NCBI GenBank assembly: GCA_963699925.1
Contig: CAVOVT010000007.1
Location: forward strand, 441,008 to 505,007
Direction: 5' to 3'
DNA: 64,000 nucleotides
From: an uncultured Gammaproteobacteria bacterium
GTDB lineage: Bacteria; Pseudomonadota; Gammaproteobacteria; Steroidobacterales; Rariloculaceae
Numbering within the stretch: position 1 is the stretch's first letter; each line of letters opens with the position of its first letter. Position numbers and translations under genes: made by a program. This document shows positions 550-35,207 of the stretch, in pieces. The notes under the pieces were generated by a model. That model made no database searches. It saw nothing but the letters and a program-made list of their open reading frames with translations, and was not told the origin of the DNA.

Positions 550-627
550 GGGCGAGACCCGGCTCGGCGCCGCCCACGTCGACCCGTCCGGCCGACGTAC
601 GGCGCTAGTTCGACGCGTGCGGCACTG

Positions 628-1717
628 CTAGCGCTTGCCGAGGTGCTCGTCGAGCCGGCCGAGATCGCGAAGGTCGCGATAGTAGCTGTCGGGATCGCAC
701 GCGGACTGCTCGCCGATATCGACGATGATCGTCGCGCGCCGAGCCGCGTTTACGCACGAGCGGCTGCGTGTAGTACGGGTCGTAGATCGTGATCGTGCGC
801 TCCATCGATAGCTTGTCGGCGCTGAAGTCGTAGCGCTCGACGACGCGCGTGCCTTCGCCCTTCATCGGCAAACCGGAACCGTCGAGCCAGCCCGGCGCAA
901 GATGCGTCGTCTCGATTACGAGCGACGTGCCCTCCCAATGCCCGACCGAGAAGCCGAGCGACGAGGCGGTCGTGTCCGCCGGCGCGCTGCGGCCGTCCAT
1001 CCAGACGCGCCGCGGCGTGTTGTGCTCGGTGTAGATGAAGAGGTAGTGATTGCCCGCGTCGACGACCTCCATGTCGTACGGCGAGCCGATCAGCCGCGGC
1101 AGCCCGAGCGGCAGGCAGCGCAGCGCCGCGTCTTGCCAGTGATCGTTCGACTCGAACACGCGCCGGCCTTCGGCGGTGAACGGCGTCGGCTTCGGCTCGA
1201 GATCGTCGACCGTCAAATGCCAGTGGTACTTGTTGCGCCACGGCCCCGTGATGTCGACGGGATAGCTCGCACGCGGGGCTCCGTAGCCGTACGTCGTGCG
1301 CGTCGCGTGCACCTGGTTCGGGTCGGGGCCGGTGCTGTCGCGTCCGGTCGCGAGCTTCGAGCCGTCGGCACGCACGATCGAGCGCACGTAGAGCTTCTTC
1401 GCGCCGTCGCGGCCGAGCTGTCCGGATACGGTCACGACGTCGCCAGCCTTCAGCGTACTCGCGTTCCAGCCGAGCGCCTGCAGGGCCGTGATGCTGGACG
1501 CCTGCAGGTCCCAGTCCTCGGTCGAGCCGTCCTTCGCTTTGGTCGTGAGTCGGTAGCGGACGTGCGGGTTGTTCCACCAGACCTGCGCGATCTCGCCCTT
1601 GAGCTCGGCCGTGGCGTTCTCGTCGAACTCGGCCGCGAACGAGTGGTGCGCGCTCGCGGGCGCGGCCGCCGCGATGGCGAGACCTATGCTTGCAAGCAAC
1701 CCGAGCCGTCGGACCAT
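628..1717 (-). CDS. secreted DUF6152-like domain fused to two-Cys partner domain (frameshift near 720)
   Basis: signal peptide ending ASA|HHSFAAEFD, WNNPH; C-terminal half has CLPLGLPR..PY and GHWEGTSLVIET; alternate frame ends DIGEQSACDPDSYYRDLRDLGRLDEHLGKR* at 628. Confidence 0.8.
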
Positions 1718-4031: not shown

Positions 4032-4847
4032 CTAGAGTCCGGCGGGGCCTTTGAGGTGCTCGACGTCCTGGTTGTTCTCGTTGCAGATGTATTCCATCAG
4101 GTCCCAGCCGGGCCGCAGCGTGGCCGTGAATTTCACGGTGAACGGCTTCTTGTACGCGCCGGGATCGGTGATCGTGACGACGTTCTCGAGCGTCGCGGCG
4201 TCCTTGCGCGTATAGCGCTCGACCGTCTGCAGCTGCGTCGTGTGCGGGTGGCCGACGAAGTCGAACCAGAACTTGTCGTTGAAGCCGACCGTCTCGATCA
4301 CGAGCGTGTCGCCTTCCCAGTGGCCGATCGAGTGGCCGTACCAGGTCGGCTCGAGATCGTCGGGATGGCCGCGGCCGTCGACGAAGATCTGCCGGTAGCT
4401 GTGGATGTTGCCCTCGAACAGGAAGTACAGAATCGTCGCGTCGCCGTAGCTCGGCGTTTGTAGGATTCGCCACGGATACGGCGCGACCCGCGGCACGCCG
4501 GTCGGCAGGCAGCGCGCCTCGGGATCCTCGGACGATAGCCGGCTCTTCATGAGCTTCTCGGCTTCGGGCAGCATCACGATCTCTTCGCCGGGCAGCAAAC
4601 CCTCTTTGATGTCGCCGATCGGACCGCCGCCTTGCCATACGCCGGAGAGATCCGGCTTGCCGTTCGGCAAGCGCGGCGCGGGACCCTTCGGCTTTTGCGC
4701 CGCCAAGCGCGGCATTGCTCGCGCTGCCGCTGCCTGCGGGCGACGTGGCCGCGGCCGGCGTCGGCTGCGCGAGCGCTTGGAAGCTCGAGAGCGCTCAGCA
4801 GCGACGAGCGTGGCGAGGGGCATGCACGGGCTGCATAGGAAGGGCAT
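4032..4847 (-). CDS. DUF6152-associated two-Cys partner protein (N-terminus frameshifted)
   Basis: PDLSGVW, DPEARCLPTGVPR, PYP, GHSIGHWEGDTLVIETVGFND, MEYICNENN. Confidence 0.75.
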   Translation of the reverse strand: MPFLCSPCMPLATLVAAERSRASKRSRSRRRPRPRRPQAAAARAMPRLAAQKPKGPAPRLPNGKPDLSGVWQGGGPIGDIKEGLLPGEEIVMLPEAEKLMKSRLSSEDPEARCLPTGVPRVAPYPWRILQTPSYGDATILYFLFEGNIHSYRQIFVDGRGHPDDLEPTWYGHSIGHWEGDTLVIETVGFNDKFWFDFVGHPHTTQLQTVERYTRKDAATLENVVTITDPGAYKKPFTVKFTATLRPGWDLMEYICNENNQDVEHLKGPAGL

Positions 4848-4858
4848 CGCTCATCGGC

Positions 4859-5254
4859 TCAGGCTCCGCCGTCGGCGGCCGCGCGCGCGAACACGCGGCT
4901 GCCGTTCGCGAGCGTCACGACGCGCGCGTTGGCCATGTTCGCGCCGCTGCGCGCGAGCGAGCCCTCGACGGTCACGACGTCGCCTTCCTTGAGCGAGTTG
5001 CTCGCCCAACCTGCCGCTTCAGAACGTTCGGGCTCGCGAGCTCGAGGTTCCAGTTCGTCGTCTGGCCGTCGTCGCCCTTCACGTCGATGTAGAACCGCGC
5101 GTGCGGGTTCGTCCACTCGACCTTCGTGACCTTGCCCGTGAGCGTGACGGGCTTCGCGGCGTCGTACTCGCGCCGCGAACGAATGGTGCGCGAGCGCGGG
5201 CGCGGCCGCGACGAGCGACGCGCACGCGAGCAACGAGATCATCTTGATTGGCAT
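4859..5254 (-). CDS. DUF6152 family secreted protein (frameshifted)
   Basis: ALA|HHSFAA; alternate frame VEWTNPHARFYIDV; GW...LKEGDVVTVEG. Confidence 0.8.
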   Translation of the reverse strand: MPIKMISLLACASLVAAAPALAHHSFAARVRRREARHAHGQGHEGRVDEPARAVLHRREGRRRPDDELEPRAREPERSEAAGWASNSLKEGDVVTVEGSLARSGANMANARVVTLANGSRVFARAAADGGA

Positions 5255-5313
5255 CGACCCCCCTTCGGCGCAGAGCGCAGGGAAATGCTAGCCGAAGCCC
5301 CGCGGGCAGTCGA

Positions 5314-5910
5314 TCATCGCGGCCCTGCTCCGCGCATCGCGTCGTCGACTCGGGCCCGAAGCTCCCGCTCGTCCACCCCGAGCGCGACGGCCTTGCGCAC
5401 CGCGTCCTCCGCGGCGTCCGCATCGCCCATGAACCCATAGGACTGCGCGAGCAGGACCCACCCCGAAGCGTCGTCCGGATGGGCCGCGAGGCGCTGCTGG
5501 AGGCCGCCGATCAGCGACGAGATCGGAGCCGCGGGCGCCGCCGGTCCCGGCGCGTCCGGAAGCGCGGTAGCTATCTCCGGGGGCTTCACGCCGGCGACGC
5601 CCGACGGCGACGCGGGCCAAGCGATGCTCTGCAGCGCCGCGAGCCTCGGCTCGACCTCCGCTTCGCCGGCTCGGTCGATATGCGCCTTCAAACCGACGCC
5701 CACGACCCACGCGACGAGCACGAAGGCGCCGAGCCAGCTCCGGAGCCTGAGCCGCCTGCGGCTCGCGAGCCAGAGCGAGACCGCGACGAACGCGCTCGCC
5801 AGCAGGATCACGCCGACGAGCACTTGGTCCTCCGACTCGATCTGAAAAACGCCGTGTGCATCGCGGCTAGGGTCCGACGAACGCCATGCCGACGCGCGGA
5901 CGCCGTTCAC
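5314..5910 (-). CDS. membrane-anchored TPR protein, CcmI/CycH-like (start uncertain, possibly near 5861)
   Basis: two hydrophobic helices followed by RLAAHPDDASGWVLLAQSYGFMG, resembling the CycH/CcmI TPR; directly downstream of a multiheme cytochrome. Confidence 0.6.
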   Translation of the reverse strand: MNGVRASAWRSSDPSRDAHGVFQIESEDQVLVGVILLASAFVAVSLWLASRRRLRLRSWLGAFVLVAWVVGVGLKAHIDRAGEAEVEPRLAALQSIAWPASPSGVAGVKPPEIATALPDAPGPAAPAAPISSLIGGLQQRLAAHPDDASGWVLLAQSYGFMGDADAAEDAVRKAVALGVDERELRARVDDAMRGAGPR

Positions 5911-5934
5911 ATACTCGGGCTTGCTTGCAGGCGT

Positions 5935-7554
5935 TCAATGCGCGGCGAGTCTCGCGGCCGCGGACGCGAGCGGGATGGCCGAGCCGGCCGCGCTCTCGGC
6001 GTAGTAGCGGACGAAGCGCTGCGTCTCGGCCGCGTCGTACGCGCGAAGATTGTCGGCCCAACGGAAGCCGATCGATTGGTATAGCAGCGAGACCTCGACA
6101 TGCAGCGCCGACGCACGCTCGCGGCCGAGGTCGACCTGATACGACACGCGATCGCCGCCGCCGACGAAGTCGGGGTCTTGCGCCGCATCGCCGTGCACGG
6201 CGACGTCGGCGTCCGCCGTCGCCTTGTCGAACCCATGCGGCAGCAAACGGTTGTCCTTCGCGTAGCGCTCGCCGCGCAGCAGTCCCGTCGTCGGCCGCCC
6301 GTCCCGGTCCACCATGATCGATTCGTAGATCTGCACCTCGTCGGCGCGCGTAATCTCGCGATGGTGCGGCTCGAACTTGAGTGGATCCTCGTCGTTGTCG
6401 TTGCCGGCGATCGAGCCGTCGGCCCGTGCCGCGCCCGAGTCGAACAGCACGGAGCCCGCGTCGTCCGTCACGCGCACGTGCAGCCAGGCACGCCGTGCGG
6501 GATACGCGGTCGGCAGCTTGTGCCCGCCGAGGTTCTCGACACGGACGTCGAACGCGAGCGTGCGGCCCGCAACCTTCGCCGACTCGATCGCGACGCGGGC
6601 GGCGGCGGAGCCCAAGTAGGCCCTCGTCTCGCGAATCCCAGCGTCGAGCTCTTGCGGCAGCGCGGCAACGCCGAGCTCGCCGCGGTACTTGTTCAGAATT
6701 CCGAGAATGAACGCGTTGCCGCCGCGGAACGTGTGTTGCGCGAGCGGCGGACGCGAAGCGCCGAAGATCGACGCAACGGGACCGTCCTCGCCGACTTTCG
6801 GCATGTGGCAGTCCTGGCAAGTTCGCGTCTCGCGATAGTCGCTGTGCCGCCACTCTTGATAGGGCACCTGCTCCGGCAACTCGCCGCTCACCTCGCCTCG
6901 CTCGTCGAGCGTCTGCGTGAAGAGCGTGTGGCAAGTCGCGCAAAGCTCCGCCTGGCGCACGTGCGCCGACTCGGTCGACTGGAACTGCGTGGCCGAGCGC
7001 ATCACCGACGCGCGTCCCGCGTCCACGGTATGCGGGCCGTACACCGCCCGCTCGCCGAGCGCCGTGCCGCGGTCGATCTCGAATCGGCCGTCGAAGCTCG
7101 CATCGGTGCCGAGATTCGGGGCAGTAATCTGATGACATACGGTGCAGGACACGCCGTCGAACGCTTCTCGATGCGCGGGCGCTGCGGGCGAGATGTTCGC
7201 GAACACCTGCCCGTGCTCGCCGTGCGTGACGGCGTCGAAGCGTGCCATCGGCATGTGGCAGGTCGCGCACTGGTCCTCGATCGCGCTCTGCGCGCTCGGA
7301 TGGTCAATGACCTCGCGGCGCACGCCGGCATGCCAATAAGGATCGCGCGCCGAGTTCGCCATGATCGTCGAGCGCCAGTCGTAGCCGATGGAGACGTCGT
7401 CGCCAGACGAGGTGTGGAGTCCACTGTGACACGCGATGCAGCGGTCCGACGTGACGAAGGCCGTCGTGGCGGCGGGCTCGCGATGGGCAGCGGCGGGCAG
7501 CACCGCGAGCGCCAAGATCGGAACGCAAACGATTCGCAACCGCATGATTTGCAA
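5935..7554 (-). CDS. pentaheme c-type cytochrome, exported
   Basis: signal peptide; five CxxCH motifs (CIACH, CATCH, CTVCH, CATCH, CQDCH); GHKLPT..P.RRAWL motif. Confidence 0.85.
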   Translation of the reverse strand: MQIMRLRIVCVPILALAVLPAAAHREPAATTAFVTSDRCIACHSGLHTSSGDDVSIGYDWRSTIMANSARDPYWHAGVRREVIDHPSAQSAIEDQCATCHMPMARFDAVTHGEHGQVFANISPAAPAHREAFDGVSCTVCHQITAPNLGTDASFDGRFEIDRGTALGERAVYGPHTVDAGRASVMRSATQFQSTESAHVRQAELCATCHTLFTQTLDERGEVSGELPEQVPYQEWRHSDYRETRTCQDCHMPKVGEDGPVASIFGASRPPLAQHTFRGGNAFILGILNKYRGELGVAALPQELDAGIRETRAYLGSAAARVAIESAKVAGRTLAFDVRVENLGGHKLPTAYPARRAWLHVRVTDDAGSVLFDSGAARADGSIAGNDNDEDPLKFEPHHREITRADEVQIYESIMVDRDGRPTTGLLRGERYAKDNRLLPHGFDKATADADVAVHGDAAQDPDFVGGGDRVSYQVDLGRERASALHVEVSLLYQSIGFRWADNLRAYDAAETQRFVRYYAESAAGSAIPLASAAARLAAH

Positions 7555-7592
7555 GCTTTTTGCGAGGCGTGGCGCTCACTATACTGCGCGCC

Positions 7593-8717
7593 ATGCCCCG
7601 TACAACCGAGCTTCGGCGCGTTTCTGTCGCGAGCACGGTGCTTGCCTCGATCGGCGCCGCACTGATCGCGTTCGGCACGGCGGCCGCCGAGAAGCCCGAC
7701 GGCGCGCGACTCTTCGACGCCGACTGCGCCGCGTGTCATGCGAGCGACGGACGCGGCCGCAGCTCGGCAGAGGTCGGGTTCGACCTGCCGCTGCCGAACT
7801 TCACCGACTGCAGGTTCGCTACGGCCGAGCCCGACAGCGATTGGTCCGCGATCATTCATCGTGGCGGCCCGCAGCGCGGTTTCGATCGAATCATGCCCGC
7901 GTTTCAAAACGCGTTGTCCGACGAAGAAATCGACGCGCTGATCGATCATCTGCGCAAGTTCTGCACGAATCCGCGCTGGCCGCGCGGCGACCTCAACATT
8001 CCCCGCGCAATGTTCACCGAGAAGGCGTTTCCGGAGGACGAAGCCGTCGTGACGATGACCGTCGTGACCGACGGGCCCGACTCGTTCGAGAGCGAATTCT
8101 CGTGGGAGCAGCGGATCGGGCTGCTGAGCCAAATCGAGGTGAGCCTTCCGATCGAGCGCGCCGATCTCGGCGATCCGACGGGCTGGAAGACCGGCGCGGG
8201 CGACCTCGCGATCGCGTTCAAGCACGTGCTCCATCACGATCTCGAGCGCGGCTCGATCCTGAGCGTCGGCGTCGAGGTCGCGCTGCCGACCGGCGACGAG
8301 ACGAACGGCTTCGGCACCGGCACGACGGTGCTCGAGGCTCGAGTTATGTATGACAAGCTGCTGCCGCACGACTCGTTCCTCGAGGTGCAAGGGCTCGCGC
8401 GCTTTCCGCACGATTCGGAGCTCGAGAACGAAGCCGAGCTCCGGATGGCGTTCGGCCGAACCTGGACTCAAGACGGCGGCTTCGGACGGGCCTGGACGCC
8501 GATGCTCGAGGTGCTCGGCCACCGGGAGCTCGTCGGCGGCGCCGAGACCGAATGGGACGTCGTGCCGCAGTTCCAGGTCACGGTGAGTGCGCGTCAGCAC
8601 ATCATCGCGGCCGTGGGCTGGCGAATGCCGGTCACGCAGCGCGACTCGCGCGTGAACGAGCTCGTGTTCTACCTGCTATGGGACTGGTATGACGGCCGCA
8701 TTCTCGAGGGGTGGTGA
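7593..8717 (+). CDS. monoheme cytochrome c fused to probable outer-membrane beta-barrel
   Basis: signal peptide, CAACH, distal Met in IMPAF; C-terminal ~230 aa of amphipathic strands ending VFYLLWDWYDGRILEGW. Confidence 0.7.
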   Translation: MPRTTELRRVSVASTVLASIGAALIAFGTAAAEKPDGARLFDADCAACHASDGRGRSSAEVGFDLPLPNFTDCRFATAEPDSDWSAIIHRGGPQRGFDRIMPAFQNALSDEEIDALIDHLRKFCTNPRWPRGDLNIPRAMFTEKAFPEDEAVVTMTVVTDGPDSFESEFSWEQRIGLLSQIEVSLPIERADLGDPTGWKTGAGDLAIAFKHVLHHDLERGSILSVGVEVALPTGDETNGFGTGTTVLEARVMYDKLLPHDSFLEVQGLARFPHDSELENEAELRMAFGRTWTQDGGFGRAWTPMLEVLGHRELVGGAETEWDVVPQFQVTVSARQHIIAAVGWRMPVTQRDSRVNELVFYLLWDWYDGRILEGW

Positions 8718-8847
8718 CGGCCCTCGGACCGGCATGCCATGGCGCGCCACGCGGCGCTACCATTAAGGCGGTGTTCAGCTCACATCTATTAATGTCGCAT
8801 CCGGTACGGGGAAATCTCGGTTTGACACCGAGTCCCACGGAGGCGGA

Positions 8848-10395
8848 TATGGCAACTCGAGCGAACCTAGCAGTTGGGATCATCGGATCCACGGCGAAGG
8901 CCGTGATGTGGGTCGCACTGGCTGCGCTGGCACTGGGAGCCTTTGGCGGTTATGCGTTTGCACAGGAGCCCGCAGCGGCGGCGAACGACAAGGTGCTCAC
9001 GAAGGACGAGCTCAATGCGCTCGTCGGCAAGATCGCGCTCTATCCGGACGACCTCGTCGCAATCGTGCTGCCCGCGTCGACCTATCCGCTCCAAGTGGTC
9101 GAGGCTGCGCGCTTCCTCGAGGAGCGCAAGAAGGACGCGAGCCTAAAGCCGAGCGACAAGTGGGACGACTCCGTCGTCGCACTGCTGAACTATCCCGAGG
9201 TCGTGAAGCTCATGAACGACGACCTCGACTGGACGTGGAAGCTCGGCGACGCCGTGATCAACCAGCGCGGCGAGGTGCTCGATGCGATTCAGGGCTTCCG
9301 CGGTCAGGCCGCGGCCGCTGGCAACTTGCACACCGACGAGCACCAGGTCGTGCAGAACGACGACCAAGGCGAGGTCTCGATCAAGCCGGCCGACCCGCAA
9401 GTCGTGTACGTGCCGTACTACGACCCGCAGCAGGTCGTCGTTAGCAGCCGTCGCCCGTCTACTCCTACTACCCGTATGGCTATCCGCTCTACTATTACCC
9501 GTATCCGTACGGTTACCCGTTCGCCGCCGGCTATTTCTGGGGCGTGACGACCGCGTTCGTGATCGGCTGGCACAGCCACTACGTGCACGTCGTGCACTGC
9601 GGCTATCCCGGCCATCCGTACTACGGCCACTCGTACTACGGCGGTTACTACACGCGCCACGACGCGAGCCCGGCCATGAGCCATGGCAACTATGTCTGGC
9701 AGCCGCACTATCGCGCGGGCGGTCAGCCCTTCACTCGCAGCGACGGCCGACAGCTCGCGATCGCGCATCGCAACGCGAACACGGGCGGAGCGCCGAGCGG
9801 CTACCAGAACCGCGGTCCGGCGAGCGCGGGCTTGCACGGCAATCGCCCGGCCGTGGGGGCGAACGGAGCGCGCGAGGGCATGAAGCAGATTCAGCCGATT
9901 CGAAACGATGCGCCGACTCAGGCTGCCCTCCGCAACGAGCCCGCCGCGCACGGCGGTATGAAGCAGATCCAGCCGGTCCGCAACTCGCCGACTCAAGCCA
10001 CGATCCGCGACGAGCTACGCGCGCATGCGCCTAACCAGACGGCGTACACGGGGCCGGGCGCGGCCGGGGCCCACGCGACCCTGCCGGCGGCGCCTGGCGG
10101 ACGCTATCAGGCTCCGAATCAGAGCATGGCATTCCGGACCTCGCCGCAGGTCGGCTCGCCACAGTTCCACGCGCCGCAGATCAGCCCACAGGCCCACAAT
10201 GCGCCGCAAATGCGTGCGATGCCGATGCCGAGCTCGCCGGCGACGAGGGCGATGCCGCACGAAGGCGGCGCTAGCTACGCCTATCGCTCACCGTCAATGT
10301 CGATGCCGCGAACGGGGCACGCGCCCGCGGCTCACCCAGGCGGCGCGGCGCACGGTGCGCAGGGTCATGGCGGCGGCGGACACGGCTCCCGCTGA
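8848..10395 (+). CDS. DUF3300 domain protein with long disordered C-terminus (frameshift near 9445)
   Basis: IALYPDDLVAIVLPASTYPLQVVEAARF, WDDSVVAL..YPEV, VVYVPYYDP. Confidence 0.8.
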
Positions 10396-10431: not shown

Positions 10432-13233
10432 TCATCCATAAGCACCCACGTGTAACGCGATCAGCGCGCTGAGCTCGAGCATCAGCCCGTAAGCGCGCTC
10501 GATCGGATCGAAGATCCGCGCGTGCTCGACCGCATAGCCCGAGCTCGTGCGCGCGTAAGTGTCGCGCTCGGCGTAGACCTCCGTCTCGTCCGCGGCCTGA
10601 GCGGCCGGGAAGATTCGCCGCAGCGTCGACGACGGTATCGGGCACGTCGAGATACAACAGCCGCTCGACGAGCTCGTCGAGCGAAACCTCGGTCAGCGAG
10701 CTGAACTGCGGGATCTCCATCGCCTTCAAGTAGATGAGCTGAATCAGCGCGAGCCGCAGCGTATGCAGCCGCGTGAGCGCGTCGCCCGAGGACCACGTGC
10801 CCTCGACCTGGTGCTGCTCGAGCACGTCGTCGAGATCGGCCGCATCGCGGCGCAGCCGGCGCACGAAGCGCCGATCGAGTCGTAGTCGAAGACCTCGCCG
10901 AGCACCTCGGAGATCCGGCGCAGCACGCGGTTCCAGCCACGATCGAGCGACTGGCTCGTCCGGTCGAGCCAATAGTTCGCATTCATGAGCTGCACGTACG
11001 CCTCGAACATCGTGACGTCGGAGCGCTCGCCGCGCCGCGAGCGCGAGCGTGAGCACCCGCTCGAGCCGCTCGGAGCCTTCGAGCACCGCGAGGAACTGTC
11101 TCTGGTGATTGGTTCGTCGCGAGCCCGAGACCCGCGAAGCTGTTCACGAGATAGCCGAGCTGGTGCAGCATCGCGTTGTTCGGGATCGCGCGCAGCTCGC
11201 GCGATCGTCTCGATGCCCGCGCTCGAGCGGCCGCCGCCTTGCCGCTTCGCGGGCCGCGAGCCGGTCGGGTACAGCAGGCCGCGGCCGAGCGTATTGATCA
11301 AGCGCGAGGTAGCCGCGGTGCCGGCCCAGCCGTTCTTGAGTTGTCCTTGAGCGTCAAGAAGAAGTCGAGCGCCCAGCCGCTCTGCGCGTACAACGCGTCG
11401 GGGCGCGCGGGCGACGGCCGCGTGAGCCGTGCGCTGAGCAGATCCGTTGCGACCGCGAGCGCGGTGCGCTCGGACGCGAACCACAGATAGCCCTCTCCGC
11501 CTTGGAAGCTCACCTCGTGCTTATGCGGCGTCGCGAGCTCGTTCAAGCGCCGGCGGACCTCGCTCGAATGCGTGTACAGGAACCGATCCTCGAGGCTGCG
11601 CGGATGCGCGCCGCGGCCAATCGATTCGCCGTGCGTGTCGAAGAACAATAGCTGCACGCCCTGGAGCCCGCGCGCTTCCCAAAGCCGGATCAGCCGGAGC
11701 TTGAAGCGCTCGATCGCGAGTGTGGCGGCCGGTTGGCCGATGTAGCGGCCCGAGTCGGAGAAGCCGAGCTGGACGCAGAATCGGCCTTGGCGCTGCACAT
11801 AGTCGAGGAAATGCTGGTTGTCGAGCAGCTCGGCGATCACGCGGTCGCCGTGATGCATGCCGTCCGCGGTCTCGAACAGCGGCGAGATCTCGACTTGGGC
11901 TCTCGACGCCGAAGAGCCGAGCGTAGTAGAGCGCCGCGAGCAGCGTGAACGGCGTGTCGGACTCCGCGACCAGCATCCGCACGGGCGTGCGGGCGTCGAA
12001 GTGCTTTTGAAACTGCGCCGCGAGCATGAACACGCGCTTCGCGGTGGTCTGCTCGCGCGCGACGGTGCCGTAGTGCACGTTCACGGGCGTCACGTTGTCG
12101 AGCAGGCTCGTCACCGCGGCCAAGAAATGCCGGCGGGTCGGGCTCTCGCCGGGCGCGGCGTCGAGCGCGATGTCGGGCCGGATCGCGTTGTGCAACTGCA
12201 CCGAGTTCAGCCGAAAGTGCAGGCGCGCAAGACCGAGCCCAAGCCCTAACCATTCGGCGCGGAACACGAGCAGGTCGCGGCACTGAATTGGGGTGAGCTC
12301 GAACTCGAGCAGCGCCGCGAGCGCCGCGTCGATCGCACCGATCGCGTCCTGCTTGAGCGCGCGCTTCTCGAGCGCCAATCGATTGAGCCTGCCGAGCCGC
12401 ACGGTATCGTCCGCCTCGCGCCCGAGCGCCTCGACGCCCATCTGGAAGCACTCGCTCAATGCGCCGAGCGCGCGCGCAATCGCGTCGAACGCCTCGGCTA
12501 CCTCCGTCGTCGCATCCGCGTGCCGCTCGCGCATGTCGCGAAGGCCTTCGTGCAGCTCCTCGAGGCCCGCGAGCGCGATCTGGTACCGGCAGCTCAAACT
12601 GCGGTTCCAGCCGATGTCCGTGCGGCCATCCAAGTCGAAGCCGACCCAGGTGGCGGCCGTGAAGAAGCGCGGCACGAGCCGCCGGTAGTCGTCCGGGTAA
12701 AGCTCGGCCGCGATCTCGACCGCGACGCGCAACATCCGGCGCATCGCCTTGCGCAGGTGCCGAATCGCGACCATCGACGCATCGGCCTCCTGCTGCAGTG
12801 TCGGCGCGGACGCGCGATGCACGGTCACGCGGCGAGGCTGAGCGTGCGCGCCGTTCGCGCGCGTGCCGACTGAGCCCAAGCGCATGAGCTCGAGCGCGAT
12901 CTCGTTCGCGCCCTCCGACAACGAGAACGTCGGATGCGCCGTGAACACGATCCCCGCGAGCTCCGAGCCGAGCAACCGCTCGAACACCGTGAAATCGACG
13001 AGTCCGCGCCCGTCGTGCGCGAGGTCGCGGAACAAGCGGCGCAGCCGCGCCTCGTTGTCCTGCTCATCGTGGAAGCTCAGCTGGCGAAGCAGCCCGTCTA
13101 CACGCGCCTGCAGCGCGGGCAGCGCGGCATCGGCGATCTGCTTCGCGATGTCGTCGAGCGTGAGCCGGCCGTGCAGCAGCTGGAACACTAGCGTCCAGGA
13201 CTTGTCGAGGTGGTTGTCGCGCGGCGCGAGCAT
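10432..13233 (-). CDS. ppc: phosphoenolpyruvate carboxylase, divergent type (several frameshifts)
   Basis: FTAHPTF, WVGFDLDGRTDI, QLGFSDSGRY, FFDTHGESIGRGAHP, SFQGGEG, RAIPNNAMLHQLG spread over consecutive frames; ends LIALHVGAYG*. Confidence 0.8.
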
Positions 13234-13462: not shown

Positions 13463-14314
13463 TCAGTACGCGACGCCGAGCTCCGCCGAAAGCTGCGCCT
13501 GCATCTCGGGCGGCACGTCGAGCGAGCCGATGGTGACGCCGTTCGGCGCTCCCGCGGCGATCCACCAGCGCACGATCGCAACCTGTCGATCCGTCAGCGG
13601 CGTCTTGCCCTCCGCCGGCATGAACTCCTCGTCGTCGTGCGGCAGCGAGATCCGGCGCAGCAGCTCGCTCTGCTCCGTGTCGCCCTTCACGATGACCTTA
13701 CCGCTGTCGCCGCCGCGCATCGCGGTCTTGTAAGACGTGAGATCGAGACCGTTCTCGCGCTTGTCGGAGTTGTGGCAGCCACCGCAGCGATCCTGAAAGA
13801 ATTTGCCGACGACGTCCTCGAACGGATCGGCCTCGTGCACGCTCGTGACCACGCGCCGCGGCGCGAGACCCACGAGCGCGCGCAGCGGTTGCGGCGCGTA
13901 TTCGACGAGATACGTCGAGCCGTGGGTGAGATTGCCGCCGAAGTGGCCCGTGATCGCGACGAGGAGCAGCAGCACCGCGGCCGCGGGAAAGAATACCGGC
14001 TTGTAGCTCGCGGCAAAGCTGCTCGTGCGCACCAACGCGACGACCGTCGCGATCAGGGCGACGGCCGTGCCGAAGTTGCGATGCTGCAGCCCCGACGAGC
14101 CGAAGTTGCCCTCGCTCAAGTGCAGGTAGCCGAGCGTTACCGTGACGAGCGCGGTGAGCGCCATCGCTCCCCAAAGGAACGGGGAAGCGGCCTCGAGATA
14201 TCGGTACTTCTCCTTGCGCGCGAGCCACTCGAGCACGAACAGCGCACAAATGATGCCGATCGGCAGATGGAGGACGAGTACGTGGAAACGGCCGAGAAAG
14301 TAGAGAAAGTCCAT
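13463..14314 (-). CDS. membrane protein (DUF2231-like helices) fused to Planctomycete-type cytochrome c
   Basis: GRFHVLVLHLPIG, TGHFGGNLTHG, CGGCHN, GLDL, SELLRRI.LP....MP. Confidence 0.75.
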   Translation of the reverse strand: MDFLYFLGRFHVLVLHLPIGIICALFVLEWLARKEKYRYLEAASPFLWGAMALTALVTVTLGYLHLSEGNFGSSGLQHRNFGTAVALIATVVALVRTSSFAASYKPVFFPAAAVLLLLVAITGHFGGNLTHGSTYLVEYAPQPLRALVGLAPRRVVTSVHEADPFEDVVGKFFQDRCGGCHNSDKRENGLDLTSYKTAMRGGDSGKVIVKGDTEQSELLRRISLPHDDEEFMPAEGKTPLTDRQVAIVRWWIAAGAPNGVTIGSLDVPPEMQAQLSAELGVAY

Positions 14315-14469
14315 CTGCGCGATACCCTGCCCTGAACGTGAGGGTGCGTACGATAAATCAGCGCCGCCGCGCGCTGCCAGCTTGACACGGCCGGGGCGCG
14401 CAGCGTGACCGTGGCAGCGAGCCGCGGACAATCCTTCGGCCGCGCACGACTCCTAGCTGCGCGCGGGGA

Positions 14470-16025
<1,556 letters not shown>

Positions 16026-19141: not shown

Positions 19142-20163
19142 TCAGAGCGCCTTCGGGAAGCGCTTGAACACCTTGCGTGCGTTGCCTTCGAAGATCTGCG
19201 CGCGCTGCGCAGCCGACAGCCTCTTGTTGCCGTCGACGTAGCGCTTCGTGTCGTCGAAGTAGTGCCCGGTCTCGGGATCGATGCCGCGCACTGCGCCGAC
19301 CATCTCGGACGCGAACAGGATGTTGTCGATCGGGATCACGTCGAGCAGCAAGTCGATGCCGGGCTGGTGGTAGACGCAGGTGTCGAAGTAGACGTTGTTC
19401 AGCACCGACTCCTTGAGCGGCGGCCGCTTCAGCATGTCGGCGAGCCCGCGGAACCGCCCCCAGTGGAACGGCACCGCGCCGCCGCCGTGCGGGATGATGA
19501 GCTTCAGGTCGGGAAAGTCCTTGAAGAGATCCGACGTCATCAGCTGCATGAACGCGACCGTGTCGGCCGCGAGGTAATAGGAGCCCGTCGTCTGGAAGTA
19601 CGGCGTGTTGCACGCCTCGCTCACGTGCACCATCGCGGGCACGCCGAGCTCGACCATCTTCTCGTAGAGCGGATACGAAGTAGCTTGTCCGCGAGGCCCG
19701 GGCCGTTGAAATAGCCGCCGCTCGTGTCGGGGTTCAGGTTGCAGCCGACGAAGCCGAGCTCCTCGACGCAGCGCACGAGCTCACGCACCGATTGGTCGAT
19801 CGCGACTCCCGGCGACTGCGGCAGCTGCGCGACGCCGACGAAGTTTTTCGGGTAGAGCTTCGTGAGCCTAAAGATCAGGTCGTTGCACTGCTCCGTCCAC
19901 GCCTTGCTGGTCGACGCGTTGCCGAGATGGTGACCCATCCAGCTCGCGCGCGGGCTGAAGATCGTGACGTCCGTGCCGCGCTCGCGCTGCAGCTTCAGCT
20001 GCGCGCCCTCCACGCTCTCGCGTAGCTGGTCGTCGCTGATCTTGAGCTCGCCTTTGACGGCCTGAGCTTGCGGATTCTTCTTGAGGTCGGCCTTCTGCTG
20101 GTCGCGATAGTCGCCGAGCGCTTTCGGCGTGGTGGTGTAGTGGCCGTGGCAGTCGATGATCAT
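19142..20163 (-). CDS. ligJ: 4-oxalomesaconate hydratase, amidohydrolase family (frameshift near 19670)
   Basis: MIIDCHGHYTT, SPRASWMGHH, LPQSPG, NLNPD, PHGGGAVPFHWGR, FASEMVGAVRGIDP. Confidence 0.8.
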
Positions 20164-20194
20164 CGCAACGCACCTGCAATCAATTGGGCCGCAA

Positions 20195-22346
20195 TCATTT
20201 GGACTGGGAGATCTCCGCGACGACGTACTCGCTCACGGCGCGGATCTGTGCGGCGCTAAGCGACGACCCGAACGCCGGCATGTTGTTGCGCCCATAGCTT
20301 ACGGTCTCGACCGCGAAATCGACGGTCGGCACCGACGTGAGCGGCATGCCGCCGCCGTGTCCGCCCTTGCCGTCCTCGCCGTGGCACGCCACGCAGACCT
20401 GCGCGTACACCTCGTGACCGTTCGCCGCCACGACCGGCTGCGCCGAGGCCGAGGCCGAGGCCGACGACGAAGGCGCCGGTTCCAAAGTCGACGTGGTCGG
20501 CGTCTCGGAGTCGCGCGGCGTCGTCGGCGGCAGCGTGCCGTCGAGGCCGAACAGCCAAACGCTGTCGCCATGCGCGGTGCCGACAAGCAGATTGCCGGCC
20601 GAATACGCGACGACGTACGGCTTGCCCGCGCGCTCGAATACCGTCACGGGCGAGTTCATGCCGGCGCCGGTCTGAAACTCCCAGCGCATCGCGCCGGTCG
20701 CGGATTCCAGCGCGGTGAGCCGGCCGTCGTTGCGGCCGACGAACACGAGCCCGCCCGCAGTCGCGACGGAGCCGCTGTAGCACTGATCGGTCCAGCGATA
20801 GCGCCACACGAGGCGATTCGTCGTCACGTCGAGCGCCGCGAAGATGCCCGAGCGCGGCAGCGCCGCGAAGCCGACGACCCCGCCCTCGTAGTGCGCGCCG
20901 TCGGGCGGAATCTCGAAGTCGCGGTCGCCGCCGACGAAATTGCCGACGACCGACGACGCACACACGAACAGCAGGTGCCGCCCGGGATCGTACGAGCTCG
21001 GCGGCCAGTTCGCGCCGCCGTAGAGGCTCGGGTTCACGATCATGCCGTCCGCGCCGACGAACGGCGTGAAGATCCGGCCTTCGTTCACGAGCTTGTACGC
21101 CTTCGGGCGGGATGTCGACGTCCTGCGGCACGATCGCGTCGCCGCGCGGATAGGGCTGCGTGGCCGCCGTCGCCTGGCGCGGCTCCTGCGGCACGGGCTT
21201 CTCGTCGATCCCGATCAGCGGCTCGCCGGTCTTGCGATCGAGAATGTAGGCCCAGCCCGTCTTGCCGACTTCGGCAAGCGCCTTGCGAGCGACCCCGCCG
21301 ATCTCGACGTCGAACAGCACGACGGGGTTCGGCGCGTCGTAGTCCCAGAGATCGTGATGCACTTGCTGGAAGTGCCAGCGGTATTTGCCCGTCTTCGCTT
21401 CCAGCGCCACGATCGAATCCGAGTAGAGATTGTCGCCCGCGCGGACGGCGCCGTTGAAGTCGGGCCCGGGGTTGCCGGTCGAGAAATAGAGCAGCCCGAG
21501 CTCGGGATCGACGGCCGGCGTGTGCCACACCGTCGCGCCGCCGTGCTTCCAGACATCGTTGTCCTTCGGCCACGTGTCGTGCCCGTGCTCGCCCGGGCCG
21601 GGCACGGTGTAGAACGTCCAGACGAGCTTGCCGCTCTTCGCGTCGAACGCCTTCACTCGGCCGCGCACGCCGATCTCTGCGCCGGAGAAGCCGGTGATCA
21701 CGAGACCGTCGTAGTAGAGCGGCGCGTTCGTGAGCGAGAACCCCTGCTCCCACCGCTCGGCCTGGACCGACCAGATTTGCTTGCCGGTCTTCTCGTCGAG
21801 CGCGAGCAGCTTGCCGTCGAGCTGGCCCACGAACACCTTGCCGGCGCCGAGGCCTACGCCGCGGCTCGTCCAGCCGCAGCACACGCTCGCAATTTTCGGA
21901 TCGAGCCCGCCCAAGTGCTGCCAGAGGATCTCGCCGGTCTCGATGCTGAGCGCGAACACGTCGTCCGCACCGGTGATCACGAGGATCCGGCCGTCGTGCA
22001 CGAGCGGCTGCGCCTCGCCCGAATACTGCGGCGCGAGCCCGGAGCCGCGCAGGTGCGTGCGCCAGACCCCTTTCAGCCCGCCGACGTTGCTCGGATCGAG
22101 CGCGCGGGTCGCGGAGTAGCGCTGGTTGTACAGGTTGCCGCCGTTGGTCCGCCAAGCGTCGCGCGGCGGCGCCACGAGCTGCGCCGGGGCGAACGCGTCG
22201 ACCTGGCCCCGCTGCGCGAAAAGGGCGCCCGGCGCGAGCAACGCGAGCAGGCCGAGGGCCCGGCACGCGCCTCCGATCCGCGCGCGGCCACGCCTGCGCG
22301 CCGGCTCGCAAAATTCGGCCGGTAGGCCGCGTCGATGCCCTTTCAT
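20195..22346 (-). CDS. quinohemoprotein (PQQ plus C-terminal cytochrome c) alcohol dehydrogenase-like enzyme (frameshift near 21100)
   Basis: NQRYS, vicinal VCCG, GAEIGVRG, TGNPGP, HHDLWDYD, C-terminal CVACHG...MPAF. Confidence 0.85.
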
Positions 22347-35094: not shown

Positions 35095-35207
35095 TCTTCC
35101 CCGACGAAAGCGCACGAAGAGCGAACGCTAAACCCGGAGCACTCGGGCATGCAACCGGCTCGGCTTGAGCTAAGATGCGCCAAACCATAACGAATGGGGG
35201 TCTCGCG

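Follow-up and report, generated by a model that had tools for sequence, protein, structure and literature searches.

The nearest precedents for the gene pair described here are Cyc2, ExtI/ExtKL and PtdAB. The available excerpts of the work on Cyc2 describe a 16-stranded porin-like barrel in which a short cytochrome-like domain acts as a plug (PMC13741234, PMC5566968), and in A. ferrooxidans it gives electrons to rusticyanin, a cupredoxin, and to the cytochrome Cyc1 (PMC13741234). MccSep (ExtKL) is presented, in the accessible part of its description, as a periplasmic polysulfide reductase built of a five-heme cap and an Ig-like stem that gives a catalytic residue (PMC13510729); the porin ExtI is encoded in the ExtKL cluster and, according to a source available in part, is required for selenite and tellurite reduction (PMC5877670). 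PtdA, encoded in the ptdABCDEFG cluster of marine bacteria of oxygen-deficient zones, is outlined in the available text of a preprint as a pentaheme cytochrome that bears a beta-sandwich at its C-terminus, is related to Thermochromatium tepidum c552 and is encoded beside the porin PtdB, and its authors proposed a porin-cytochrome complex (bioRxiv 10.1101/2023.11.21.568154).

The window, meaning the whole stretch of 64,000 nucleotides that was analysed, encodes a cytochrome c fused to an outer-membrane barrel and, divergently, a secreted pentaheme cytochrome (Table 1). Soil bacteria from several phyla retain the two genes as a pair, whose products probably exchange electrons with small molecules at the outer membrane.

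Table 1. Features of the fusion-pentaheme locus, in positions of the window.
Feature	Position	Strand	Basis or remark
Cytochrome c-barrel fusion gene	7593-8717	+	Open ORF, 374 aa from ATG, then stop
Putative fusion signal peptide, residues 1-32 (MPRTTELRR...GTAAA / EK)	7593-7688	+	By eye from sequence
Class I cytochrome c domain, residues 33-125	7689-7967	+	Pfam and invariant residues
CAACH, fusion residues 45-49	7725-7739	+	
Axial Met101 of RIMPAF	7893-7895	+	
Conserved linker, residues 126-150 (..RWPRGDLNIPRAMFTEKAFPEDE)	7968-8042	+	Nearly invariant; probable lumen plug
12-stranded outer-membrane beta-barrel, residues 151-374, aromatic end W374	8043-8714	+	AlphaFold2 strands, fold matches
Divergent intergenic region between the two ATGs	7546-7592	.	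47 bp
Secreted pentaheme cytochrome gene	5935-7545	-	536 aa from ATG, then stop; five CXXCH
Signal peptide and five-heme domain, residues 1-300	6646-7545	-	Heme 1 = C36-H40
C-terminal Ig-like beta-sandwich, residues 316-536	5938-6600	-	AlphaFold2 and 5ze8 match
Small membrane protein, CcmH/CycH-like TPR	5314-5910	-	Next after pentaheme; not a conserved module member

The fusion gene is present in one copy in the genome and has no internal stops; an alternative upstream TTG start is possible at 7560. A basic start, a hydrophobic core and an AAA cleavage motif suggest that the N-terminus serves as a signal peptide. Pfam class I cytochrome c models match residues 46-133 (PF13442, E 1.5e-9, 38.5 bits against a cut-off of 27; PF00034, 34.7 bits against a cut-off of 21.3), and C45, C48, H49 and M101-P102 are invariant among 31 aligned homologues, as is a Cys73/Cys124 pair. 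The domain is a His/Met class I cytochrome c, in agreement with what the first-pass annotation had read from the CAACH motif and the methionine; in the AlphaFold2 model it has low confidence, with pLDDT <50 over residues 29-102. More than 3282 matches have the same fused build, and a profile search returned 365 clusters (50% identity, E<=1e-30), the full-length ones being 360-415 aa long with both domains covered. No description of this family was found in the literature searched.

The C-terminal 224 residues were predicted by AlphaFold2 to form a beta-barrel of 12 main strand segments and one of 4 residues (pLDDT mostly 71-91, with dips to 58-65), and the chain ends in ...EGW, of which G373 and W374 are invariant among the aligned homologues. 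The top match in VIA-align is FapF (5o65; Z 19.8, 219 residues aligned), also matched by Foldseek (E 5.7e-9), together with the COG4313 channel 4rl8 (Z 18.9, 219 aligned), and the next rows include the KdgM and NanC porins, autotransporter barrels and a designed 12-stranded barrel. The 12-stranded fold is shown at the level of the model, and the beta-strand C-terminal part with an aromatic end, proposed earlier from the sequence, is borne out. PF13557 is matched only weakly (E 0.089, 13.3 bits, under the cut-off of 22) and is carried by 12-29% of members in sister clusters. Short strand connections of 3-5 residues alternate with longer ones of 5-14 residues, as expected with a periplasmic N-terminus, and the heme domain would sit on the periplasmic side. 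The alignments to FapF (starting at its residue 92) and to the COG4313 channel (starting at its residue 5) take in the model from residues 133/137 onward, and no helix is predicted by AlphaFold2 in linker residues 126-150. The N-terminal segments of FapF and of the COG4313 channel occupy their barrel lumens, and it is from this background that we infer that the conserved linker probably plugs the lumen here. The barrel itself may work as a channel.

The pentaheme cytochrome, also encoded by a single-copy gene, has at least 7999 homologues. Its five CXXCH motifs lie at residues 36, 93, 134, 202 and 243, and its cysteines are confined to these motifs and to residue 7 of the signal peptide. The five-heme domain has weak matches to PF14537, PF22113 and PF14522 and low confidence in AlphaFold2. 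The 10-residue blocks of the Ig-like domain are mostly at pLDDT 74-95, with two at 68-69, a dip to 51 at the invariant motif G-H342-K-L-P-T-A-Y-P and values <50 at residues 345-349; invariant residues are numerous in this domain, including H342, H394 and a G-N-D-N-D loop. T. tepidum c552 (5ze8) aligns over 250 residues within model residues 62-533 (Z 14.0, rmsd 3.6) and is also matched by Foldseek (E 5.8e-7), while a profile match (E 2.6e-4) places the invariant motif opposite 'PHAMPTGAP' of 5ze8, with H-x-x-P-T in common. The ExtKL model NF040886 matches weakly (E 2.4e-5, 23 bits against a cut-off of 250); the catalytic Cys and Sec of MccSep are absent from the inspected sequence, and no in-frame TGA was found in the gene. 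At 536 aa, with its Ig-like domain strongly conserved and its His motif invariant, the pentaheme is more elaborate than a mere relay would require, and its relatives include a true enzyme, MccSep; both points speak against the relay reading favoured below.

The close divergent pentaheme gene of the first-pass annotation was found as described, with five CXXCH motifs and 47 bp between the ATGs; a consensus scan of 5000-9200 identified no sigma-70-like promoter or terminator. Co-occurrence of the two cytochromes, proposed at that stage as a test, is strict: the same 23 of 61 related genomes hold both genes while the other 38 hold neither, and in 22 of these 23 the two are adjacent on one contig. 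The pentaheme gene also adjoins the fusion in 22 of 30 loci of other phyla, which span Acidobacteriota, Gemmatimonadota, Verrucomicrobiota, Rhodothermota, Balneolota and Pseudomonadota, and the conserved members at these loci are two genes only. In a sample of 201 Acidobacteriota genomes, 23 showed a strong fusion match and 15 of these a strong pentaheme match as well, and two genomes of this phylum (G277 and G311) have a pentaheme of 43% identity without a fusion. Such pairing of the two genes greatly exceeds what chance would give.

Modelling of the complex points to direct contact between the two proteins. The fusion-pentaheme model reached an ipSAE of 0.80 in each of three runs, compared to 0.00 for the best of three controls, a score that is the model's own confidence from author-built alignments; for comparison, 116 of the 157 solved complexes attained the 0.80 mark, as did 2 of the 215 mismatched pairs. 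The pLDDT of the partner is 91, and at least 98% of contacts are common to all runs. The predicted interface comprises fusion residues 43-48, 56, 59-64, 91 and 99-107 and pentaheme residues 33-42, 176-187, 259-262 and 296, so that the CAACH and Met101 loops of the fusion are predicted to dock on the heme-1 CIACH region of the pentaheme. The predicted contact on the pentaheme is limited to heme 1, and the barrel takes no part in it. Because barrels of the FapF/COG4313 type, with 12 strands, leave too little room for the heme domain, and because the barrel lies outside the predicted interface, a heme wire across the membrane is unlikely, and the outer-membrane electron conduit suggested from the sequence is, in the Mtr sense, not supported.

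Ten distinct loci lacking the pentaheme have a secreted cupredoxin gene adjoining the fusion, and the cupredoxin is present in 6 of 8 fusion-only Acidobacteriota genomes; three loci (L024, L099 and L105) have a fusion with neither partner nearby. The adjoining cupredoxins have invariant His141, Cys179, His182 and Met185 followed by a beta-sandwich domain, and a profile built from them aligns with a copper nitrite reductase in its cupredoxin domain (9cck, E 1.3e-4) and with the blue copper protein 5fc9 (E 0.0019). The fusions with this partner form one clade (support 96/89) nested among pentaheme-partnered fusions, and a cupredoxin of the same kind is absent from all pentaheme loci examined. 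Both alternative partners have plain Sec signal peptides. This substitution within one clade suggests that the barrel-tethered heme is served by a periplasmic electron relay that can be exchanged.

The data fit a channel-coupled, periplasm-facing redox module, and we tentatively favour a mechanism in which electrons move between a small solute and the cytochrome c that a narrow barrel holds at its periplasmic mouth, while the pentaheme or the cupredoxin acts as the relay. The fusion would be the constant, function-defining part of the module, its narrow 12-stranded barrel, probably plugged by the linker, holding the His/Met cytochrome c at the periplasmic mouth. A small redox-active solute may reach the tethered heme through or at the barrel and there give up or take electrons, a logic analogous to that of the iron oxidase Cyc2 with unrelated parts. 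With heme 1 of the pentaheme placed at the exposed edge of the fusion's heme, the two proteins would form a six-heme chain that could act as an electron relay linking the outer membrane to the respiratory chain in the periplasm or inner membrane, and in one clade a blue-copper protein would take over the relay job. The direction of electron flow and the substrate can only be suggested, with Fe(II), Mn(II) or another small donor or acceptor as candidates.

A somewhat less probable reading makes the pentaheme an enzyme, as in ExtKL/MccSep, acting on a small substrate at one heme beside the Ig-like domain, with the barrel as the substrate or product channel and the fused cytochrome c as a tethered donor or acceptor that holds the enzyme at the mouth. 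The fold and H-x-x-P-T motif common to the pentaheme and T. tepidum c552, the weak NF040886 match and the many invariant Ig-like residues described above are consistent with this. MccSep is a periplasmic enzyme of the same build whose substrate crosses the outer membrane by a route given as unknown in the available portions of the literature (PMC13510729 and a preprint); the requirement for the ExtI porin of the same cluster in selenite and tellurite reduction (PMC5877670) and the adjacency of the pentaheme PtdA to the porin PtdB (bioRxiv 10.1101/2023.11.21.568154), both taken from partial texts, point the same way. However, the catalytic features of MccSep are missing, the only extra Cys being residue 7 and in-frame TGA codons being absent, and the predicted contact involves heme 1 alone and leaves the barrel uninvolved. 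In addition, a whole clade replaces the pentaheme with a cupredoxin, a pure electron carrier with type-1 copper ligands only, which makes the pentaheme hard to reconcile with the role of catalytic core.

It is unlikely that the barrel is closed and a mere anchor; the module would then belong to ordinary periplasmic electron transport, as a part tethered to the outer membrane, and solutes would not cross. Small barrels such as OmpA or OmpX contain charged strand networks and no pore, and the many conserved charged residues on the strands, the conserved linker inside the stretches aligned to FapF and COG4313, and the position of the barrel outside the predicted interface would all suit an anchor. 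Anchoring by a lipid would, however, cost the cell far less. Conservation at the strand, linker and loop residues equals that at the heme site, and the closest folds (FapF, COG4313, KdgM and NanC) are transporters or channels by their entry titles.

Very unlikely is an autotransporter-like surface display, in which export would bring the cytochrome c onto the cell surface to meet extracellular minerals directly, giving a true trans-membrane electron path. The domain order is that of type Va autotransporters (N-terminal passenger, linker and C-terminal 12-stranded barrel), and the BrkA, NalP and AIDA-I barrels match at Z 15.2, yet FapF and COG4313 match better and no helix is predicted in the linker. 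In the Ccm system, heme attachment and domain folding occur in the periplasm. A folded domain of ~90 residues would thus need to cross after periplasmic folding, and both alternative partners, with their plain Sec signal peptides, would need export too.

Least probable is the view that the three genes form a unit, with the TPR protein devoted to the maturation of both cytochromes, since the linkage of its gene is not conserved: it lies near the pair in 1 of 10 related loci by tblastn, non-adjacent and ~1.7 kb off, the 30 loci of other phyla yielded no copy, and a stronger CcmH/CycH-type TPR gene is located elsewhere in the genome (67.5 bits). The first-pass annotation was right on the position of a CcmI/CycH-like gene directly after the pentaheme gene, and PF23914 (TPR_CcmH_CycH) does match (E 7.6e-9), but at 36 bits the score stays under the 42-bit cut-off, and the proposed unit with its own maturation helper is largely refuted. 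Other maturation-like neighbours occur elsewhere, namely an exported thioredoxin at L007 and, read from sequence, a TlpA-like thioredoxin ORF after the pentaheme at L095.

Among known systems, the FapF and COG4313 (Phenol_MetA_deg) channels share with the window barrel its 12 strands and alignments that reach into the linker before the first strand, at an identity of 12-14%. To our knowledge, neither of these channels carries a redox domain. T. tepidum low-potential c552 is the top structural match of the window pentaheme across both domains, at 16-19% identity, the window protein being ~100 residues longer, and through c552 the window pentaheme and ExtKL/MccSep belong to a common overall fold family. 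The ExtI/ExtKL genes of Geobacter sulfurreducens resemble the pair in that a gene for an outer-membrane barrel neighbours one for a pentaheme protein, whose five-heme domain is N-terminal and whose Ig-like domain is C-terminal, as far as the available excerpts describe them (PMC13510729, PMC5877670). The heme 2 Cys ligand of MccSep and the Sec/Cys of its Ig-like domain are absent from the window pentaheme, and while ExtI is described in those excerpts as a porin with no mention of a heme domain, the window barrel has its own cytochrome. PtdA and PtdB likewise combine a c552-related pentaheme bearing a beta-sandwich with an adjacent porin gene; in the accessible text the ptd cluster goes on with tetraheme, decaheme, flavoprotein and ferric-reductase-like genes, in contrast to the two conserved genes here, and PtdB, comparable with the window barrel by description only, is called just 'a porin', heme unmentioned. 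Cyc2, the Fe(II) oxidase of Acidithiobacillus, Zetaproteobacteria and Gallionellaceae, is like the fusion in that one polypeptide starts with a single-heme domain at the N-terminus and has an outer-membrane barrel at the C-terminus, and its electrons go to soluble periplasmic carriers in the excerpts available (PMC13741234, PMC5566968), a place taken here by the pentaheme or the cupredoxin. As had been supposed from the sequence, the fusion is nevertheless distinct from Cyc2, compared here by partial description only: its barrel has 12 strands of the FapF/COG4313 type rather than 16, and it carries a full class I cytochrome c of ~90 residues.

The window is GC-rich (66-72% per kb), and the three genes at issue are picked out by reading frames with high third-position GC (coordinates in the table below). 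One encodes a cytochrome c joined to a C-terminal barrel, referred to here as the fusion, and its ATG lies 47 bp from that of a pentaheme cytochrome gene on the opposite strand, which is followed in turn by a TPR gene. The first-pass annotation had read the three ORFs as a cytochrome c with a barrel-like C-terminus, a neighbour with five CXXCH motifs and a TPR protein, and ORF reading and Pfam searches agree with it. No promoters or terminators were found in a consensus scan of 5000-9200. A sequence-word search with a 2783-base stretch listed no RNA datasets containing it; only four metagenome DNA runs, two each from soil and mine, share small fractions (0.05-0.07) of its words. Elsewhere in the window several genes are split or frame-shifted, the DUF3300, PEP carboxylase, FAD_binding_3/Rng_hyd_C and Amidohydro_2 genes each occupying two ORFs, and a DUF6152 gene has its middle out of frame relative to its relatives. 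These split genes, together with a completeness of 61.7% for a genome of 4.65 Mb in 20 contigs, suggest an indel-rich assembly rather than real pseudogenes.

Coordinates of genes discussed in the window and in fetched loci (L numbers)
Feature	Sequence	Coordinates	Strand	Remarks
Fusion gene	window	7593-8717	+	374 residues; intact
Pentaheme gene	window	5935-7545	-	536 residues, leader, exactly five CXXCH; intact
TPR gene	window	5314-5910	-	after pentaheme gene; two hydrophobic stretches, then TPR region (read from sequence)
DUF3300 gene	window	8711-9547, continuing to about 10395	+	PF11737 E 4.3e-47; directly after fusion gene
DUF6152 protein	window	4032-5254	-	
DUF6152 protein	window	605-1717	-	
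DUF2231 and Planctomycete-type cytochrome c membrane protein	window	13463-14431	-	PSCyt1, E 6.8e-15; 5 kb from fusion-pentaheme pair
PQQ-dependent dehydrogenase gene or fragment	window	20195-21214	-	
PQQ-dependent dehydrogenase gene or fragment	window	27317-28690	-	
PQQ-dependent dehydrogenase gene or fragment	window	35169-36977	+	
Split or frame-shifted gene	window	4859-5254	-	
Split or frame-shifted gene	window	8711-10395	+	
Split or frame-shifted gene	window	11298-13233	-	
Split or frame-shifted gene	window	14470-16025	-	
Split or frame-shifted gene	window	19142-20232	-	
NtrC-type sigma-54 regulator	L001	705-2153		
NtrC-type sigma-54 regulator	L004	5667-6362		
NtrC-type sigma-54 regulator	L017	1413-2978		
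NtrC-type sigma-54 regulator	L026	14114-15166		
NtrC-type sigma-54 regulator	L030	1245-2636		
Pentaheme homologue	L107	5281-6990		43% identical; Acidobacteriota genome G277
Pentaheme homologue	L108	5346-7043		43% identical; Acidobacteriota genome G311
NtrC-type regulator and histidine kinase	L108	2977-5332		beside pentaheme homologue

The fusion begins with a basic and hydrophobic leader that, as read from the sequence, ends in AAA before EK, and the CAACH motif (residues 45-49) lies about 13 residues past the predicted signal cleavage site. This CXXCH motif, a distal Met101 (RIMPAF) and Pfam matches above cut-off (PF13442, E 1.5e-9, 38.5 bits against 27; PF00034, 34.7 bits against 21.3) mark the domain as a class I cytochrome c. 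Across an alignment of 31 homologues with identities of 57-88%, C45, C48, H49, M101-P102 and the cysteine pair C73 and C124 are invariant, as are G373-W374 and most of the linker at residues 126-150 (WPRG..N..R...TEKA.PEDE). The remaining residues, 151-374 (about 224), end in EGW. Homologues are numerous, with more than 3282 matches in a large protein collection; all 120 of those listed cover 75-100% of the query, most being 350-440 residues long, and the named ones among them are called just 'cytochrome c'. A profile search of 1.84 billion representatives returned 7395 matches at E<=1e-3 and 365 at E<=1e-30, the latter representing clusters at 50% identity, and the full-length matches (360-415 residues) cover both domains. 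Solved structures matched by sequence are generic cytochromes c only. A second weak match within the genome (locus L082) was rejected as an unrelated two-heme protein.

The AlphaFold2 model of the fusion has a mean pLDDT of 67.5, with a poorly modelled heme domain and a C-terminal part whose 10-residue blocks mostly score 71-91, forming 12 main strand segments plus one of 4 residues. Connections between strands alternate in the model between short (3-5 residues) and longer (5-14 residues), the pattern that would be expected if the N-terminus is periplasmic. Foldseek places FapF first (E 5.7e-9), followed by PcoB, a COG4313 channel and NanC/KdgM, with OprO and OprP matching at TM 0.25-0.27 only. 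VIA-align likewise ranks FapF highest (Z 19.8, 219 residues, the alignment starting at model residue 133 within the conserved linker), then the COG4313 channel 4rl8 (Z 18.9, rmsd 3.0, 219 residues; model 137-367 against chain 5-268), and lower down the porins KdgM and NanC, a related Vibrio porin, barrels of autotransporters and a designed barrel of 12 strands. FapF, COG4313, KdgM, NanC, the autotransporter barrels and the designed barrel are among the 14 best rows of this ranking, which are 12-stranded barrels throughout. At model level only, the match to 4rl8 points to a 12-stranded barrel with an N-terminal segment in the lumen, as in COG4313 channels. The C-terminal part is accordingly predicted to be a 12-stranded barrel of the FapF/COG4313 kind, and the condition under which the first-pass annotation would have been refuted, a C-terminal region that does not fold as a barrel, does not apply. 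In sequence, the Phenol_MetA_deg family PF13557 matches below cut-off (13.3 bits against 22; E 0.089); its precomputed match is present on 4 of the 120 listed homologues and, in sister ESM Atlas clusters, on 12-29% of the members. A separate ESM Atlas cluster of about 453-residue proteins carries the same cytochrome c domains with DUF5777 (PF19089) instead of a Phenol_MetA_deg-like barrel, so that class I cytochrome c may have been joined to small barrels on several occasions. DUF5777 is not mentioned in the literature searched.

The pentaheme protein has at least 7999 homologues, the few named ones being 'hypothetical protein', and Pfam and NCBIfam give weak multiheme matches only: PF22113 scores 23.2 bits (cut-off 30), and the ExtKL model NF040886 scores 23.1 bits (cut-off 250; E 2.4e-5) and matches the heme domain alone. 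In the AlphaFold2 model its heme domain is poor, and its C-terminal beta-sandwich (residues 316-533) is far better, most of the 10-residue blocks there having a pLDDT of 74-95. Its one clear structural relative is Thermochromatium tepidum c552 (5ze8), superposed at Z 14.0 and rmsd 3.6 over 250 residues spanning both domains (Foldseek E 5.8e-7). The two are also related in sequence (phmmer E 0.0011; profile E 2.6e-4), and the profile alignment pairs G-H-K-L-P-T-A-Y-P of the pentaheme protein with P-H-A-M-P-T-G-A-P of 5ze8, H-x-x-P-T being common to both. The Geobacter protein ExtKL, now MccSep, combines a five-heme cap with an Ig-like stem and is a periplasmic polysulfide reductase that works with a heme 2 ligated by Cys and a selenocysteine supplied by the stem, according to the accessible text of PMC13510729. 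MccSep is absent from the PDB matches of the pentaheme protein in sequence and structure searches, perhaps not being in the copy searched. The cysteines of the pentaheme protein are those of the five CXXCH motifs and Cys7 of the signal peptide, and its frame is open; with no extra cysteine outside these elements and no in-frame stop, the protein belongs to the wider c552/MccSep fold family and is not of the MccSep type.

The two genes travel together over wide phylogenetic distances. The fusion is present, whole or in large part, in thirty loci from other phyla. The pentaheme gene adjoins it in 22 of these, following it in the same orientation in 20 and lying divergently, as in the window, in L001 and L020. 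The other eight are four loci with a different partner, one with none (L024), two that end inside the fusion gene (L025, L029) and L030, an outlier at 30% identity with almost no DNA downstream. All-against-all ORF clustering of these loci and the window yields no third conserved gene beside the pair. Within 61 genomes of the window's order, the fusion and pentaheme profiles match an identical set of 23, covering 19 of the 22 other species of the genus and three other genera of the family; none of the 24 genomes that represent other families is among them. The two genes adjoin each other on one contig in 22 of these 23 and on two short contigs in the related genome G204. The earlier reading had offered co-occurrence of both cytochromes in other genomes as a test, and such co-occurrence is found. 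A class-wide spread sample gives one weak match in 200 other genomes, and the module is patchy, not a trait of the class. In 201 Acidobacteriota genomes a strong fusion match occurs in 23 and a strong pentaheme match in 17, with both genes in 15, the fusion alone in 8 and the pentaheme gene alone in 2, where it is divergent (43% identity). These two genomes, G277 and G311, have no fusion at E<=1e-20; a 407-residue ORF occupying the fusion's usual place upstream in one of them (L108) was rejected as unrelated to the fusion (hhalign probability 0.4) and has no family match. In five loci an NtrC-type sigma-54 regulator is encoded no more than a few kb from the module, and another, with a histidine kinase, sits beside the fusion-less pentaheme gene of L108. 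Such regulators are common paralogues, and they may control the module or be present by chance.

The TPR gene does not share this conservation. It had been proposed as a CcmI/CycH-like maturation helper in a three-gene cluster; the likeness is retained as a match to PF23914 (TPR_CcmH_CycH; E 7.6e-9, 36 bits) that falls below the cut-off of 42, TIGR03142 gives no match at the locus, and a gene on a different contig of the genome matches PF23914 more strongly (67.5 bits). The linkage itself fails, since the gene occurs in one of ten related loci, about 1.7 kb from the pair and not adjacent, and is not found in any of the 30 loci of other phyla, its place in other relatives being held by unrelated genes. 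On the other side of the pair, a DUF3300 gene follows the fusion gene in 6 of the 10 related same-family loci and not in other phyla. DUF6152 proteins, paired with a 271-residue protein of no family, are found near the cytochrome pair in 4 of the 10 related loci; the leader of the relatives' homologues ends in A before HHSFAAQYD, so that the mature N-terminus would be His-His, a hint of metal binding. Further away, the window encodes a membrane protein with DUF2231 and Planctomycete-type cytochrome c domains, and three PQQ-dependent dehydrogenase genes or fragments, one with a C-terminal cytochrome c domain as in the quinohemoprotein type. PQQ-dependent dehydrogenases are periplasmic enzymes that likewise need soluble electron acceptors.

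The partner of the fusion is not always a pentaheme protein. In the genomes of L007, L024 and L027 the fusion is present and no pentaheme match is found at E<=1e-10, and when the loci of the eight fusion-only Acidobacteriota genomes were fetched and their ORFs clustered, a neighbour common to most was recovered. This secreted protein of about 220-250 residues has an invariant His141, a C179-D-x-H182-x-W-M185 motif and a Cys65/Cys116 pair, followed by a C-terminal carboxypeptidase-regulatory-like beta-sandwich (PF13620, about 30 bits, just below the cut-off of 32.3). Eight of these proteins were combined into a profile, which recovered the C-terminal cupredoxin domain of copper nitrite reductase 9cck (E 1.3e-4), its His ligand and its Cys-His-Met ligands lining up with theirs. 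Further matches are 5fc9, a blue copper protein of type 1 (E 0.0019), and amicyanin (E 0.04). By tblastn the cupredoxin adjoins the fusion in ten loci (L007, L015, L018, L027, L098 and L100 to L104), with one copy on either side in L018 (L106 is the same place), and is found in no pentaheme-bearing locus nor in the window. It is present in six of the eight fusion-only Acidobacteriota genomes, and L024, L099 and L105 have neither partner nearby. In a maximum-likelihood tree of 47 fusions the cupredoxin-partnered rows fall into one clade (support 96/89) of 12, the ten with a cupredoxin plus L099 and L105, nested among pentaheme-partnered branches; the row for L019, labelled 'none', is an artefact of a pentaheme gene cut by the contig end.

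Binding between the fusion and the pentaheme protein is predicted by a complex model in which the mature proteins were folded together, each with its own alignment, in three runs with three controls. The pair reaches an ipSAE of 0.80 in all three runs against 0.00 in the controls, with a partner pLDDT of 91 and at least 98% of contacts common to the runs. Of 157 solved complexes 116 attain this ipSAE mark, as do 2 of 215 mismatched pairs, counts that are only rough for user-supplied alignments. The confidently predicted interface joins the heme-binding motif and Met-ligand loop of the fusion (residues 43-48, 56, 59-64, 91 and 99-107) to residues 33-42 (the heme-1 CIACH), 176-187, 259-262 and 296 of the pentaheme protein and includes no barrel residues. 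Heme-edge-to-heme-edge electron transfer would call for just this docked geometry, and the model lends support to binding of the two proteins.

In the reading favoured here, the tethered heme of the fusion would oxidise or reduce a small solute at the outer membrane, and a soluble partner, pentaheme or cupredoxin, would relay electrons to or from that heme. The heme domain would then lie in the periplasm and the barrel would be open. Electrons would be unlikely to cross the membrane on a chain of hemes, because the heme domain looks too large for a 12-stranded barrel, and the solute would instead have to reach the heme. In the main rival reading the pentaheme protein would itself be an enzyme, as MccSep is, and the barrel its substrate channel, by analogy with ExtI/ExtKL and PtdA/PtdB. 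The rich conservation of the pentaheme Ig-like domain speaks for this; however, the protein is without the MccSep residues, and a cupredoxin can take its place. A tethered heme with a soluble relay is preferred because the heme-tipped barrel is constant, its neighbour swaps, and a cupredoxin is a pure electron carrier. Each of the two readings may be partly right. The logic of the module would then resemble that of Cyc2, which works with rusticyanin and Cyc1 in the accessible part of PMC13741234, built from unrelated parts.

A bolder and rather doubtful proposal is that the module represents an unrecognised class of outer-membrane redox device, a gated 12-stranded channel with a built-in high-potential heme and an interchangeable pentaheme or cupredoxin relay. 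The heme would oxidise or reduce a small extracellular species on entry, candidates being Fe(II), Mn(II) or a soluble shuttle, and electrons would then pass to the relay. Soil members of the Acidobacteriota, Gemmatimonadota and Verrucomicrobiota, and some Proteobacteria, would carry such a device widely, which would give many aerobic heterotrophs of soil that pass for 'ordinary' a way to exchange electrons with their surroundings independently of Cyc2. Cyc2 and porin-cytochrome clusters are the genetic markers from which iron oxidation and extracellular electron transfer are inferred, and the fusion-pentaheme pair, built of different parts, would escape them. The pair is common, with 365 clusters and with about one in nine sampled Acidobacteriota genomes (23 of 201) having a strong fusion match, and it spans several phyla. 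The predicted docking and the natural exchange of pentaheme for blue-copper protein provide concrete, testable hypotheses, and since activity is known for only one member of the c552/ExtKL/PtdA superfamily, a conserved partner offers a way into that question.

Among known systems, the barrels of the porin-cytochrome conduits MtrAB, MtoAB and PioAB are about 26-stranded and sheathe a decaheme; here the modelled barrel has 12 strands, and the five-heme partner is predicted to touch the heme domain only. In type Va autotransporters an alpha-helical linker passes through a C-terminal 12-stranded barrel and the passenger domain lies outside the cell. Autotransporter barrels (BrkA, NalP and AIDA-I, Z 15.2 in VIA-align) resemble that of the fusion less than FapF and COG4313 do, and AlphaFold2 predicts no helix in residues 126-150. 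The fusion is like Cyc2 in carrying an N-terminal single-CXXCH heme domain and a C-terminal outer-membrane barrel in one polypeptide. By published description, however, the Cyc2 barrel is 16-stranded and porin-like (PMC13741234, accessible part), whereas the fusion has 12 predicted strands. The heme part of Cyc2 is described as a short cytochrome-like domain sitting as a barrel plug (PMC5566968, accessible part); that of the fusion is a full class I cytochrome c, which looks too large for a 12-stranded lumen.

The pentaheme protein resembles MccSep in its five N-terminal CXXCH motifs and C-terminal Ig-like domain, and differs in the absence of the Cys ligand on heme 2 and the Sec/Cys from the Ig-like domain that the available description of MccSep reports. 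With c552 it shares the two-domain fold, five-heme plus Ig-like; c552 is given no assigned function in the accessible portions of papers discussing it, and cable-bacteria workers group c552/MccSep-type proteins as the pentaheme cytochrome ('PHC') family (PMC11976967, in part). The literature searched, which takes in only a minority of subscription journals, contains no description of a COG4313/FapF-type barrel joined to a class I cytochrome c. The nearest precedent, going by the accessible description in a 2024 preprint, is the ptd cluster (bioRxiv 10.1101/2023.11.21.568154), in which a c552-related pentaheme protein with a beta-sandwich is likewise encoded beside an outer-membrane barrel gene. 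In contrast to ptd, no tetraheme, decaheme, flavoprotein or ferric-reductase-like genes are conserved alongside the pair in the 30 loci and the window, and no ORF with more than one CXXCH other than the fusion and pentaheme genes occurs in the loci whose flanks were examined.
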